Source: an uncultured Wenzhouxiangellaceae bacterium (GTDB lineage: Bacteria; Pseudomonadota; Gammaproteobacteria; Xanthomonadales; SZUA-36). From it: a stretch of DNA of 32,000 nt. The translations under genes and the position numbers were made by a program. The stretch covers positions 65,572 through 97,571 of the forward strand of contig CAYYCX010000004.1 of the NCBI GenBank assembly GCA_964470455.1. Reading direction: 5' to 3'. Shown in pieces: positions 23,491 to 27,694 of this stretch (the first letter of the stretch is position 1; the number at the start of each line of letters is the position of its first letter). The notes under the pieces are model-generated. The model did no database searches, had not been told where the DNA came from, and saw only the letters and a list, made by a program, of their open reading frames with translations.

Positions 23491-24594
23491 TCAAGGGCCC
23501 GTTGAGCCGGTTGGGCCTGTGGGGCCCGTTGAGCCGGTAGGGCCTGTGGGACCTGTTTCACCCGTGGCTCCGGTCGGGCCGGTGTCACCCTGTGGCCCTG
23601 TCGGCCCGGTCTCTCCGGTTGGGCCGGTCGGGCCGGTTACACCCACGGCGCAACCCTGTGGCCCAAGCATTTGTGTAATCAGCAGGTGGGCTGCCACCGG
23701 CTGGCTGCCACCCGCTGATGGCGTGATGGTCAGGGCAGAACTGTTGCCCGAGGGATTCCTGACGCTGATGACGGAATTTGGCCCGGAAGTCTGGACCAGC
23801 GCCATGCCCACCAGCTGGCTGTTGCCGGCTGCGCGCCCGACCACCGTCCAGGGCAGTTCCACACCGTTCAGCGCCAGCACCAGCTGGCCCGCTTCGGAAA
23901 TGCTGACCTGGAACATCACCTGGTAAACCGCGATGGCCGGCAACAGGAAGCTGTCGACACCCAGCCGAACGATTTGCCCGGTGTTTGGCCCATCCTGGGG
24001 AAAGTCCACATCGCCCGCCACGGGAACTGTGACCGTGTTATCGGTGGGCATCAGCGCATAGAAGTCAGCGAAGGCGCAGCTTCCAACCGCGCCGGCAGGG
24101 CCAGTGGCGCCGGTGGCTCCCGTCGGGCCTGTTGCCCCCGTTGCGCCGGTATCACCCCTGGGGCCGGTGATCCCGGCCTCGCCCGTGTCGCCCTTGGGTC
24201 CGGCAACGCCTTGCGGGCCGATCAAACCCGGATCTCCAGCAGGTCCGGTGGGTCCCACGCTGCCGGTATCACCCTGTAACCCGGTGACGCCAGCCGGGCC
24301 GGTTGGCCCCGTGGCGCCCGTCGCGCCTGTCGGACCTGTCGGACCCGTTGCGCCCGTTGGACCCGTAGCGCCGGTGGGGCCGGTCGGCGGTGTTGTGCAA
24401 TTGCCCAGTTCCCCCGTCTGTCCGGCCGTGTCGTAGCAGAGCGGGTTGTCAAAGCCTGGCTGGGCATCGAGATTGGGAATGACAACACCATTGTCCGGGC
24501 CAGGATCAATCGTGATGTCCGCCTGCAAACCCGCGGCAACGGTTCCCAGGGAAATGGAAATGGCCAGCGCTAGCTGTCTCGTGGTTGAATTCAT
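23491..24594 (-). CDS. Secreted collagen-like triple-helix-repeat protein with a central BclA/C1q-like globular domain
   Basis: 367 aa. A signal-peptide-like N-terminus ([18 protein letters not shown]) is followed by about 33 uninterrupted G-X-Y triplets ([10 protein letters not shown]...). A non-repetitive region of about 140 aa comes next (FADFYALMP...[25 protein letters not shown]...[16 protein letters not shown]). About 16 further G-X-Y triplets run to the stop codon. Confidence 0.85.
23495..23548. repeat. 27-bp tandem duplication in the 3' collagen-like region
   Basis: GGGCCCGTTGAGCCGGT(T/A)GGGCCTGTG occurs twice (23495-23521 and 23522-23548) with one mismatch. It encodes TGPTGPTGS twice. 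Confidence 0.85.
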
Positions 24595-24758
24595 GGCTTT
24601 CCTTTACCCCTTTTCCTTCAAGGCGATTGCGGGCTCACGACGGACGCAAAAAAACTGCCTGCACTGCGTCGCTGATGATTTGGTGCGGGCATGGACAACC
24701 TTTCGACGAACCCCGCTTGAAGCTATGTTGCAGACCTGTTCCGGTTAAAGCAAGTCAT

Positions 24759-26492
24759 TCACTCCAGCTGTTCCAGCCGCGCACGCGCCTCGGCTTCCTC
24801 GGAATAGCCCTGGCCGGCAGCTTCGGCAATCACCCCGCGCCAGGCCCGGCGGGCGTTATCGATGTCTCCCGCCCGCTCCAGCGCTTCGGCACGTTGCCAC
24901 ATGGCGCCAAAATGATGCGGGTTTTCCTGTAATACCTGGTCCAGCAGGTGCAACGCCGCCGAATAATCCTTCGCCTGGTAGATCAGGCCAAGCGCCTGGC
25001 TCATCCGGCTTTCACCCGGCGGTTTCAGCCCTTCGGCCGCAAGGTGTACCGAGCCTGCCGGACAATTCTCCGGCAGCTTGCGGTCCACCACCTCGAATTC
25101 GTGCATGGTGGGGCCGGTGAGCAGGAACCCCATGGGAGCCATGTCCACCGCGCAATACGTCACACCGGGCTCCATCCGCGGCCAATATTGATCCGCACCC
25201 CAACTGCGCGCCAGCCCGGCATAGTTCAATGTTTCAATCCGGTAATAATCGCGGTTGAGAAAACCCGAACAGACGAACAGGCCCATCACCAGCATCAGCA
25301 TCAACACGGCAACCACGGTGGAGCGGCCACGAACCAGCGGATACAGGCTGGCAATGAGGCCGGCCCAGACCAGCGGCAGGAACAGGTAGTAGCGCAACTC
25401 GTGGGACTGAGGAAACATCGAAACCAGCAGCAACAGCGATGCGCCGGCCATGCAGATAACCAGCCCCTTGCGAGGTTTCAGCCACAGCGCCAACGCAGCG
25501 GCCAGCAACAGGTGGCACACCACCGCCACATTCCAGAACCCGCCCGAGCGGAAGGCTACCCAGGCGTTGCCCTGGTCGATGATCCAGCGGGCCCGATGGG
25601 CATACTCGTGCGGGTGCCCGATCTCAAACAGCGAGTGCAGGAACTTGACGGACTGGCTGCGCCCCGCCAGCGGTGGCGGGCTGTTCTCCCACGGTTGGGG
25701 TTGCAGGAACTCCGTGCTGTAAGGCAGGTAGTCCTGCAACAGTGGAACCGGTACCGGCCAGAACGGGTTGCCGTAGACCACCCAGTTCTTGATGTAGGGA
25801 ACCGTGGCCAACAGGCCGGCCAGCGATATCCACGCCAGGGCTCGCAGCTGGCGGGCATCCTTTCCCCACGGGGCCGGCCGGTAAACCGCCAGATAGAGCA
25901 GCAGCGTGATCGCCACGGCGGGGGTGAGCTGGAATTTGCTCCAGGCCGCCGCAACCAGGCCCGCCAGGCCGGTGAGCAGGATCGCCAGGTCTGATGTCTT
26001 GTCAAAGTAATAAGCATGAAAAAGGCATAACATGCCCAGCGCCAGCCACGAATTGCTGAAGAGATCCACATAACTCGATGCCATGTGAATCAGCACCAGC
26101 GGAGCAGTCAGCGCAATGGCGGCAAACAGGTAAAACGGAATCCTGAGCTTCCGCTGGCCGATCGCAAGAAGTGTTGCGAAGGCCAGGAAGTTGGCCACCC
26201 CGGTGGCGTTGGCCGAGCCGGTCACCCGCCACAGGACACCCTGGACGAAATGCGCCAGCGGCGGAAAGCCCTGGAAGGCCAGGGTGATCCGTTCCGACAT
26301 GGTGTAGGCAATATCCAGCCCACCGTACACGGCGGCAAAGGGCAGGTGGTAAAGCGGCGTATCCCAGCGGCCTTCCAGCCGCAAAGCGGCACGCGTCGCC
26401 AGGACCGCCAGGCACGCCAGCACCAGCGCCATGAACAGGTACTGCAGGTAACGCACCACTCCGTGGGTGGATTGGCTTTGCTCCCGATTCAA
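24759..26492 (-). CDS. Polytopic membrane protein with a C-terminal TPR region; possible GT-C (ArnT/PMT-like) glycosyltransferase
   Basis: 577 aa. More than 10 hydrophobic segments span the first ~440 aa. A soluble tail with TPR-like repeats follows (YQAKDYSAALHLLDQVLQENPHHFGAMWQRAEALERAGDIDNARRAW). The coding call is firm. The enzymatic assignment is inferred from architecture only. Confidence 0.6.
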   Translation of the reverse strand: MNREQSQSTHGVVRYLQYLFMALVLACLAVLATRAALRLEGRWDTPLYHLPFAAVYGGLDIAYTMSERITLAFQGFPPLAHFVQGVLWRVTGSANATGVANFLAFATLLAIGQRKLRIPFYLFAAIALTAPLVLIHMASSYVDLFSNSWLALGMLCLFHAYYFDKTSDLAILLTGLAGLVAAAWSKFQLTPAVAITLLLYLAVYRPAPWGKDARQLRALAWISLAGLLATVPYIKNWVVYGNPFWPVPVPLLQDYLPYSTEFLQPQPWENSPPPLAGRSQSVKFLHSLFEIGHPHEYAHRARWIIDQGNAWVAFRSGGFWNVAVVCHLLLAAALALWLKPRKGLVICMAGASLLLLVSMFPQSHELRYYLFLPLVWAGLIASLYPLVRGRSTVVAVLMLMLVMGLFVCSGFLNRDYYRIETLNYAGLARSWGADQYWPRMEPGVTYCAVDMAPMGFLLTGPTMHEFEVVDRKLPENCPAGSVHLAAEGLKPPGESRMSQALGLIYQAKDYSAALHLLDQVLQENPHHFGAMWQRAEALERAGDIDNARRAWRGVIAEAAGQGYSEEAEARARLEQLE

Positions 26493-26554
26493 TCGGACAC
26501 CCGCATCAGGACGTCGCCGGCAGGTGCAGCATGGGGATCAGCGGCCGTCACCGG

Positions 26555-27694
26555 TCATGTTGCGCCGGTATCCGCGTGGCCCACTTTGGCCACCGAGAAC
26601 TGCCGGTTCTGGCGAATCCTTTCCAGGTCTGCCGGTGGAATGGCCAAACCTTGTTCAACCTTCGTCAATACAGTGTCGCAGGCAGCCAGGGATTCAGCAT
26701 AGGCGCCCGCCCAGTAAGCGGAAACCCCCAGCTCATCCAGCATCTGCCAGTCATAGACTGAACGCGACACGAACAAGGTGTCGTACGGATATGCGATCCG
26801 GCTGCCACTCTGCGCAAACACGAAAGCCCGGGTGAATTGCTTGCGCAGCCGGTAGTAACGCGCCAGTTCATACAGCGGCTCGGCGCGCGCGGGCCTATAG
26901 GCATAGGCGGCCAGCAGCAAGTCCATCACCTGCTCATCCGGCAGGTTCAGGCTGATGGCCATTTTTCCGAGCCACAGGCGGGCCATGAAGTTTTCTTCCA
27001 CCCAGCCGGCCATCGTGCAGCGCTTTTCATAGGCTTCGAAAGCCTTTCGAAAGTGCCCGGCATCCTTGTAGGAATTGGCCAGGTAGAACTGGCTGCGGGC
27101 ATCATCGGGGTGCTGTTGCAGATGCTGCTCCAGCAGGGCCGCATCACCGAGGAATTTCTGTTCCGCGCTGATGCCCTGCGAGCGGGCGCCTTCGCCGGAA
27201 TGGTAGTGGATATGAACACCCGCCAGTTTGGTGAAGTCCCGCGGCCCGGAAAGTTGCTCCAGGAACTCGTGTACCGGCGCCTGCCAGCGCCAGGTGGCTT
27301 CGCGCACGTTGACCAGAGCGGGAAGAAAATAACTCAGGGTGCTGTGTTTCTTCTCCAGGCGGTAATTCATGCCGGGCTGCAGGTTCTTCAACACCGCTGG
27401 ATCTTCCACCACCAGCTGTTCATCGGCGTCGATGAACAGCAGCCAGTCAGCTTTTCCCGCAGCAACCGCCAGCTCCAGCGCCTGCTGGCGGTTATGCCCG
27501 AAATTCACCCAGGGGCGCTCGTGCAGTTCGCCGGGGATGCCGGCCGTTCGAAACCAGTTACGAATGAACTCCTGCGTGCCATCGCTGGAACCGGTGTCCA
27601 CAATCACCCAGTAGGCAATGTGGCCTTTCACCGAACGGAACAGGCGATCCAGCACGCGGGTTTCGTTCTTTACAATCATGTTTAGGCAGATCAT
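26555..27694 (-). CDS. Family 2 glycosyltransferase with a C-terminal TPR-like domain
   Basis: 379 aa. The N-terminal GT-A pattern is MIVKNETRVLDRLFRSV...WVIVDTGSSDGT...LLFIDADE (DxD). The C-terminal half has TPR-like helices (QFYLANSYKDAGHFRKAFEAYEKR...). Confidence 0.8.
   Translation of the reverse strand: MICLNMIVKNETRVLDRLFRSVKGHIAYWVIVDTGSSDGTQEFIRNWFRTAGIPGELHERPWVNFGHNRQQALELAVAAGKADWLLFIDADEQLVVEDPAVLKNLQPGMNYRLEKKHSTLSYFLPALVNVREATWRWQAPVHEFLEQLSGPRDFTKLAGVHIHYHSGEGARSQGISAEQKFLGDAALLEQHLQQHPDDARSQFYLANSYKDAGHFRKAFEAYEKRCTMAGWVEENFMARLWLGKMAISLNLPDEQVMDLLLAAYAYRPARAEPLYELARYYRLRKQFTRAFVFAQSGSRIAYPYDTLFVSRSVYDWQMLDELGVSAYWAGAYAESLAACDTVLTKVEQGLAIPPADLERIRQNRQFSVAKVGHADTGAT

Follow-up and report, generated by a model that had tools for sequence, protein, structure and literature searches.

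Three genes on the minus strand of a 32,000-nt stretch of contig CAYYCX010000004.1 from an uncultured Wenzhouxiangellaceae bacterium (this whole stretch is called the window) can, with fair probability, be read as a chromosomal module. It would produce an exported, trimeric collagen-like "lollipop" whose G-X-T threonines are O-glycosylated by a two-domain glycosyltransferase (GT), a GT-C-type membrane enzyme acting after export. In the direction of transcription the genes encode a 379-amino acid (aa) enzyme that joins a GT2 domain to tetratricopeptide repeats (TPR), assigned by Pfam and profile matches (GT2+TPR; 26555..27694), a 577-aa GT-C-like polytopic membrane protein with a C-terminal alpha/beta + TPR domain, assigned by AlphaFold2 and Foldseek (24759..26492), and a 367-aa collagen-like protein, identified by open reading frame (ORF) reading (23491..24594). 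All three ORFs lie at the coordinates given in the original prediction, which had placed a GT2+TPR enzyme and a polytopic TPR membrane protein directly upstream of the collagen-like gene on the same strand, and Pfam and the structure model agree with that description. The direct support for the module comes from the architecture of the collagen-like protein, the fold of its head, the conservation of its tail, the synteny of the genes in related genomes and the nearest solved relatives of the two enzymes.

Architecture of the collagen-like protein

The collagen-like protein begins with a predicted Sec-type signal peptide (about residues 1-25; 24520..24594, minus strand), as had been noted before, in which Arg6 gives a basic n-region, residues 7-20 make up the hydrophobic core (Kyte-Doolittle ~1.3-2.0) and a cleavage-type motif, A-G-L-Q-A / D, can be read from the sequence at the end; the signal peptide is kept in paralogues and orthologues. 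Next comes a leader module of ~45 residues (residues 26-71; 24382..24519, minus strand) that contains Cys53 and Cys66. The leader is 51-87% identical in two paralogues of the same genome (contigs C123 and C6) and in relatives G003, G009, L001, L002 and L023, is common to a family of gammaproteobacterial collagen-like proteins, and has no match in Pfam or NCBIfam. The collagen-like stalk (residues 72-173, ending in Cys173; 24076..24381, minus strand) consists of 34 G-X-Y triplets without interruption, against about 33 in the original prediction, and is dominated as predicted by GAT (eight triplets) and GPT (seven), with Thr at the Y position in 20 of the 34. The Pfam Collagen family matches the 367-aa protein at E 9e-23, and the DNA encoding the stalk carries short tandem repeats of 9 and 18 nt.

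The genome to which the window belongs (G000, an assembly of 195 contigs) encodes at least three further collagen-like proteins that have the same signal peptide and Cys-loop leader and carry unrelated heads. These leader-sharing paralogues lie on contigs C123 (~11005-12147), C6 (~58406-60016), C26 (1-666) and C143 (8373-8456); in the heads on C6 and C123 Pfam finds Collagen alone, and a Hint-like segment suspected in the C6 paralogue was not borne out. Contigs C123, C143 and C26 end within collagen-repeat genes, and C143 and C123 appear to join inside one collagen-like gene. Leader-sharing proteins with other heads are found also in G003 and G009, and a second type of leader is present on the collagen-like proteins of G030, G035 and G038. 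Judged from these comparisons, the collagen-like protein is one member of a modular family in the order, with a shared leader and exchangeable heads.

The head domain

The globular head that follows the stalk (residues 174-310, 137 aa; 23665..24075, minus strand) is assigned to the BclA_C / C1q-TNF fold by Pfam, AlphaFold2 and Foldseek. Its AlphaFold2 monomer model, made with 64 homologues, has 12 strands, a predicted local distance difference test score (pLDDT) of 88.9 and a predicted template modelling score (pTM) of 0.85. When this monomer model is searched with Foldseek, the BclA structures 3tyj, 3twi, 2z5w and 1wck and the F-BclA structure 9h38 lead (E 1-3e-10) with template modelling (TM) scores of 0.76-0.89 and root-mean-square deviations (rmsd) of 1.8-2.2 Å (TM 0.79/0.87 and 1.8 Å for 1wck); ExsFA/BxpB, collagen X NC1, C1q, cerebellins and TNF-family members come later. 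The best solved structure by sequence is 9H38 (E 4e-6), which was deposited as FliK and is the C-terminal, C1q-like head of F-BclA, the tip fibrillum of F-ENA (PMC12357932), and the head family profile matches BclA 1wck at E 3.5e-13. On the model and these matches the head has the BclA/C1q fold, and the likeness to the C-terminal domain of BclA that had been suggested for a beta-rich segment of about 140 aa is borne out both in fold and in sequence.

More than 700 proteins match the head at 62-70% identity, and hundreds of these are precomputed as PF18573. Twelve of the 13 organism-named proteins among the matches listed are from Bacillota and one is from Halopseudomonas; an exhaustive search gives 261 representatives of 50%-identity clusters at E 1e-30 or better. 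The head subfamily (proteins P0001-P0120) spans Bacillus, Peribacillus, Paenibacillus and Clostridia together with this gammaproteobacterium at 60-70% identity, and no characterised member is apparent. Such identity across phyla is unusually high for the head of a surface protein and suggests either strong constraint or recent horizontal transfer. One protein of 4430 aa (P0241), which lacks G-X-Y runs and aligns partially with residues 54-113 of the head query 39 times, is probably an unrelated Ig-like or beta-sandwich repeat protein.

The C-terminal tail and its cysteine pair

Downstream of the head a linker, read from the sequence as G-P-Q-G-C-A-V and containing Cys315 (23644..23664, minus strand), leads into a C-terminal G-X-T tail defined by triplet count and by orthologues (23494..23643, minus strand). 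Its 16 triplets (residues 318-365), the number expected from the original prediction, have Thr at Y in all but one (15/16) and are followed by Gly-Pro and the stop codon (23491-23493), so that 57 residues lie beyond the head, which is not at the extreme C-terminus. The orthologue in the same-genus genome G002 has 15 triplets, and that on metagenome contig L023, with a head 91% identical, has 18 triplets, then Gly-Pro-stop, with no hsdR after it. The next-closest relatives with the same leader, L001 and L002, have tails of 4-5 triplets with their own stop codons. This variation in length is attributed to a 27-nt tandem duplication within the tail (23495-23557; 2.3 copies, 91% matches). Collagen on both sides of such a head had been called unusual, and so it is, without being unique: the head is terminal within a few residues in 118 of 120 close homologues, and G-X-Y repeats follow it in six of the 150 top representatives, ~96% stopping at the head. 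Those six mostly have tails of 5-7 triplets, and in one the collagen is a linker to a second, different head; the order head, collagen, second head is found in P0009 and P0295. By these counts the tail is real and conserved in this lineage, yet rare.

The two cysteines that bracket the head vary together. Among 174 scored homologues both Cys173 and Cys315 are present in four, neither in 169 and a single one in one, and the window protein and its G002 orthologue both have the pair. This co-variation suggests a disulfide, and the two residues probably form a clamp at the base of the head.

The two glycosyltransferases

The GT2+TPR protein has an N-terminal GT-A/GT2 domain, a TPR-like helical C-terminal half and no signal peptide. 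PF00535 (E 1.7e-6) and PF13704 match residues 6-98 above their cut-offs, TPR families match residues 187-230 below theirs, and the motifs D33-x-G-S-x-D and D89-A-D91-E are invariant. SunS glycosylates a peptide directly, and its profile match to the GT2+TPR family (E 6e-14) comes between those of the GmaR glycosyltransferase domain (E 8e-17) and a ThuS-like enzyme (3e-11), with TPR proteins, OGT included, further down the list. By profile comparison the enzyme is thus closest to the protein and peptide glycosyltransferases GmaR and SunS. Listeria GmaR, which with SunS is among the nearest solved relatives, is a GT + TPR enzyme that glycosylates a polypeptide directly as a flagellin O-linked N-acetylglucosamine (O-GlcNAc) transferase (PMC9638930); it differs in having extra linker and anti-repressor domains and in acting on flagellin, and Bacillus SunS differs in forming an S-glycosidic bond on a bacteriocin.

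The membrane protein is 577 aa when counted from a TTG codon and 565 aa in the public gene call, whose start lies 12 codons further on. Its AlphaFold2 model (pLDDT 91.5) has ~11 long membrane helices, then an alpha/beta + TPR domain, in which TPR_19 is matched at residues 506-558 (E 3e-7). The Foldseek matches to membrane proteins lead with GT-C enzymes, ArnT at E 4.8e-4 and then AftA, PglB and DPY19. W43-D44 is invariant in 49 homologues, immediately after the first long helix (residues 2-37), and a conserved acidic residue (Asp44) would accordingly lie in the first extracytoplasmic loop, as in GT-C enzymes. Some homologues are fused to PF00535 and carry the source name dolichol-phosphate mannosyltransferase, which hints indirectly at a polyprenyl-phosphate-linked sugar donor. 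On the model we read the protein as a divergent GT-C; with the N-terminus in the cytoplasm and the membrane helices odd in number, its TPR domain would lie in the periplasm. Eukaryotic TMTC-type O-mannosyltransferases are likewise GT-C enzymes with TPR domains, and their soluble C-terminal TPR part is comparable.

Linkage of the glycosyltransferase and collagen-like genes

The gene order GT2, GT-C, collagen-like gene recurs in G002 and on L023, where the three products are 91%, 73% and 79% identical to those of the window. At the G009 locus (L013, and L025 from another sample) the order is GT2, GT2, GT-C, a gene for an IPTL-CTERM protein, collagen-like gene; in G003 and L001 it is GT2+TPR, IPTL-CTERM protein, collagen-like gene; and in G030 an IPTL-like and a collagen-like gene are arranged divergently to GT2+TPR. 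A second locus of the window's own genome, over the contig ends C143 and C123, reads IPTL-CTERM, collagen-like gene, GT2+TPR, GT2. A GT2+TPR gene thus adjoins a collagen-like gene in G000 (contigs C4 and C123), G002 (two loci), G003, G009/L025, G030, L001 and L023, that is, in at least six lineages of the order. A search of genome contigs with GT2+TPR as the sole query found three loci only. In a set of 40 relatives, strong GT2+TPR matches come from six genomes, and precisely these six also give the best collagen-like matches. Of 300 genomes at class level five have GT2+TPR, and collagen repeats occur in three of these five as compared to 24 of the other 295; no G-X-Y ORF was found in the flanks of the five GT2+TPR genes, within 10 kb on either side for four and on the 6.3-kb contig of G046. 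The glycosyltransferase genes are therefore co-conserved with the collagen-like gene, and the three-gene module of the original prediction recurs in G002 and L023 and, with extra genes, in G009/L025; the GT-C gene, present in three of 41 related genomes, is much less widely linked than GT2+TPR.

The IPTL-CTERM protein (TIGR04174) is 470-490 aa long with a beta-helix-like N-terminal half and is 47-54% identical across several genera, in which its gene sits directly upstream of the collagen-like gene (L001:1002-2408; L013:14272-15744; L021 ~4310-5704; G000 C143:6876-8288); the window's locus lacks it. It may serve these collagen-like proteins as a partner or an anchor.

Two apparent lesions in GT2 genes were discarded. 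An "in-frame TGA" in the second GT2+TPR copy is simply the gene's own stop codon, reached where the alignment ends, and the ORF of 386 aa is intact. The frameshifted tandem GT2+TPR genes at L013:10001-12260 are intact (383 and 387 aa) at the same locus in the other sample (L025:10001-12312), and the L013 frameshifts are probably assembly errors and not pseudogenes.

Proposed pathway and alternative explanations

In the proposed pathway the collagen-like protein would be exported through Sec and assemble as a trimeric lollipop, a 34-triplet stalk of ~30 nm tipped by a C1q/BclA-type jelly-roll head. The Y-position threonines of its G-X-T triplets would most likely be O-glycosylated by the cytoplasmic, SgtA/GmaR-type GT2+TPR enzyme, the TPR part of which would recognise the substrate, and the GT-C-like membrane enzyme would probably act after export, adding or extending sugars with the help of a lipid-linked donor. 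The base of the head would be closed by the Cys173/Cys315 clamp, beyond which the G-X-T tail, variable in length from 4 to 18 triplets, would extend. We infer that the protein trimerises and is glycosylated, in which order the two enzymes act, that the disulfide forms and that the product ends up at the surface or outside the cell.

Several findings weigh against this reading. The related genomes are kin, so that the co-occurrence statistics at class level (Fisher p 0.006, or 0.04 once genera are collapsed) are generous and overstate independence. The PF18573 (BclA_C) match to the head, at E 1.9e-5 over 110 of 128 profile positions, scores 25.0 bits and falls under the gathering score of 38. 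With ArnT/PglB-fold GT-C enzymes the 577-aa protein shares a polytopic core and the conserved Asp in the first external loop, but no Pfam GT-C family matches it and the fold match is modest (TM ~0.40, rmsd 12-14 Å). The GT-C gene accompanies the GT2+TPR/collagen pair only in the window's genus, L023 and G009/L025, and its family is widespread in phyla without such collagen-like proteins (L024 is an example of the family without collagen-like genes). Eight more distant GT2+TPR loci, seven at 30-42% identity (G035, G038, G046, G120, G140, G234 and G322) and L012 at 56%, have no G-X-Y ORF in their flanks (10 kb on either side; for G046 a 6.3-kb contig), and the substrates of the enzyme family therefore cannot be collagen-like proteins alone. 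Finally, the IPTL-CTERM protein encoded between GT and collagen-like gene elsewhere, conserved there in L001, G003, G009/L025, G000 C143+C123 and partly G030, could itself be the substrate or a partner. The last three points would be expected if both glycosyltransferases have different targets, for example IPTL-CTERM surface proteins, further Ser/Thr-rich proteins or envelope glycans, and adjacency reflects only the clustering of surface-structure genes. We regard this as somewhat unlikely: the window, G002 and L023 have no IPTL-CTERM gene and yet keep the order GT2, GT-C, collagen-like gene, a GT2+TPR copy directly follows the collagen-like gene on G000 C123, collagen repeats and GT2+TPR co-occur in genomes even where they are unlinked, and the characterised SgtA-BclA3 pair combines the same enzyme architecture with a GPT-repeat substrate.

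The tail past the head invites other explanations for the protein as a whole. In C1q/TNF-fold domains both chain ends leave at the base; since the three-fold axis there is already taken up by the stalk, a second coaxial triple helix in one trimer looks sterically awkward; this geometry, the head-collagen-head relatives P0009 and P0295 and the several same-leader collagen-like proteins in the genome would suit a released matrix or network protein, in place of a cell-anchored fibre, with tails that associate or dock on another collagen-like protein to give a mesh or a beads-on-a-string polymer. Such a protein seems unlikely, since L001 and L002, with 4-5 triplets, have tails of insufficient length to make a stable triple helix of their own, and the conserved leader points to an N-terminus that anchors or nucleates, as that of Legionella Lcl does. 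It is very improbable that the tail is debris, either the remnant of a tandem collagen-head gene truncated by insertion of the restriction-modification (R-M) island or an artefact of repeat assembly. The stop codon does lie 57 nt from the hsdR start, and collagen repeats do break assemblies, as at the ends of C123, C143 and C26; but the 18-triplet tail of L023, ending in Gly-Pro-stop with no hsdR behind it, rules out truncation by the R-M island and largely refutes the debris explanation as such, the independent assembly G002 has its 15 triplets, the short tails of L001 and L002 end at their own stop codons inside a contig, and the lineage-specific Cys pair argues for selection. Collagen-like repeats and C1q-like knobs occur in phage fibres as well, and a cyanophage tail protein and the phi812 spike appear far down the Foldseek list of the head. 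A phage tail fibre or prophage remnant with collagen repeats is nonetheless scarcely credible here: tblastn of the head against 50,697 phage records gave no match, no phage structural genes lie within the window, a predicted Sec signal peptide opens the protein, and L023 keeps AcpH and cytochrome c as chromosomal flanks.

The locus and its neighbourhood

The co-oriented genes of the module are separated by gaps of 62 and 164 nt. The longer spacer, upstream of the collagen-like gene (24595..24758, minus strand), was read directly from the sequence and has an AAGGA ribosome-binding site 4 nt ahead of the ATG; it contains no promoter consensus and no terminator, and its folding is at the level of shuffled sequence (z -0.2). 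Scanning for promoters and terminators and folding of the three intergenic regions gave nothing over shuffled background, and terminator-like structure was seen neither between the three module genes nor between the collagen-like gene and hsdR; as a sequence scan this result is neither for nor against an operon. The 57-nt spacer from the collagen-like stop to the hsdR start (23434-23490) has a 9-bp stem-loop without a U-run, which is no terminator, and read-through into hsdR is therefore possible.

The module had been placed inside a defence island, which proved to be inexact: it lies at the edge of the island, with defence genes on one side only. The island (Fic, RES, an IS3 transposase, SIR2_2 with a partner gene, and hsdS/M/R at 8.3-23.4 kb) has a lower G+C, and the G+C of the module is at the core-genome level. 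The nearest island gene is hsdR of a type I R-M system (21046..23433, minus strand; Pfam ResIII and EcoEI_R_C), which flanks the module and is outside it; the other flank consists of an AAA_14/DUF4143 gene, cytochrome c and AcpH. AcpH and cytochrome c flank the module in L023 too, where a type I R-M system separates GT2 from cytochrome c and so lies on the opposite side of the module, and the defence genes are therefore variable flanks and not parts of the module. The hsdR proteins of the two systems (L023:2530-8633 and window 17951-23433) are 33% identical. The region between AcpH/cytochrome c and the module looks like an integration hotspot for defence genes. Close to its N-terminus HsdR carries a length-polymorphic Gly-Pro-x-Gly tandem repeat, with three units in the window (~23332-23367) and four in G002 (L004:2653-3780).

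Relationship to known systems and significance

By analogy of design, the closest known system is the SgtA-BclA3 pair of C. difficile. SgtA is a 358-aa enzyme with a GT-A domain and four TPRs encoded just ahead of bclA3, and it modifies threonines in the BclA3 GPT repeats with beta-O-GlcNAc (PMC7157674). With SgtA compared by its described architecture, both loci pair a GPT-rich collagen-like protein with an adjoining enzyme of ~360-380 aa in which GT-A/GT2 is followed by TPRs. The present locus differs in its non-sporulating gammaproteobacterial host, in the Sec signal peptide and different N-terminal module, in the gene for a GT-C-like membrane enzyme between the two genes, and in the second collagen tract after the head. 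B. anthracis BclA and B. thuringiensis F-BclA (1WCK, 9H38; PMC12357932) share a G-X-T collagen-like stalk and a C1q/TNF-fold head with the window protein, but their heads are C-terminal, sequence identity is only 17-24%, and the head described here belongs to a separate and very conserved subfamily. They also have an exosporium leader or hook peptide where the window protein has its Sec-type signal and Cys-loop module and no ExsF/BxpB-docking leader of the kind found in the BclA-type exosporium nap.

The closest Gram-negative analogue is Legionella pneumophila Lcl, likewise a collagen-like lollipop trimer. Lcl has a signal sequence, a short region at the N-terminus that binds surfaces, a collagen region of variable length and a trimeric head; it is exported by type II secretion, and its glycosylation is unmentioned in the main text of the paper (PMC11162425). 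The genome of the window has the type II secretin GspD, at a score over the curated cut-off. The Lcl head is DUF1566 and its N-terminus an amphipathic helix, in contrast to the C1q-like head and Cys loop of the present protein, which scores 86 bits against the cut-off of 500 for NCBIfam Lcl (NF046116), with the repeats alone scoring, and so falls outside that equivalog family.

A collagen-like stalk with a C1q-type head and a dedicated GT2-TPR enzyme is already known from the spore surfaces of Bacillota (BclA, BclA3/SgtA). New here are the same design in non-sporulating Gammaproteobacteria with putative Sec export, a second, membrane-bound enzyme of apparent GT-C type, the leader module and the modular build in which a shared leader is combined with exchangeable heads, and the lineage-specific collagen tail past the head, probably Cys-clamped. 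That this tail is a functional second collagen segment joining C1q-headed trimers, or leader-sharing proteins, into a glycosylated extracellular network or polymer is decidedly doubtful; if true, the tail-linked network would be a Gram-negative bacterial analogue of the network-forming collagens VIII and X. Should the proposed glycosylation hold, the two or three genes would be a compact system for a glycosylated, hydroxyproline-free collagen in a Gram-negative host, with relevance to biomaterials and to the envelope appendages of uncultured bacteria.

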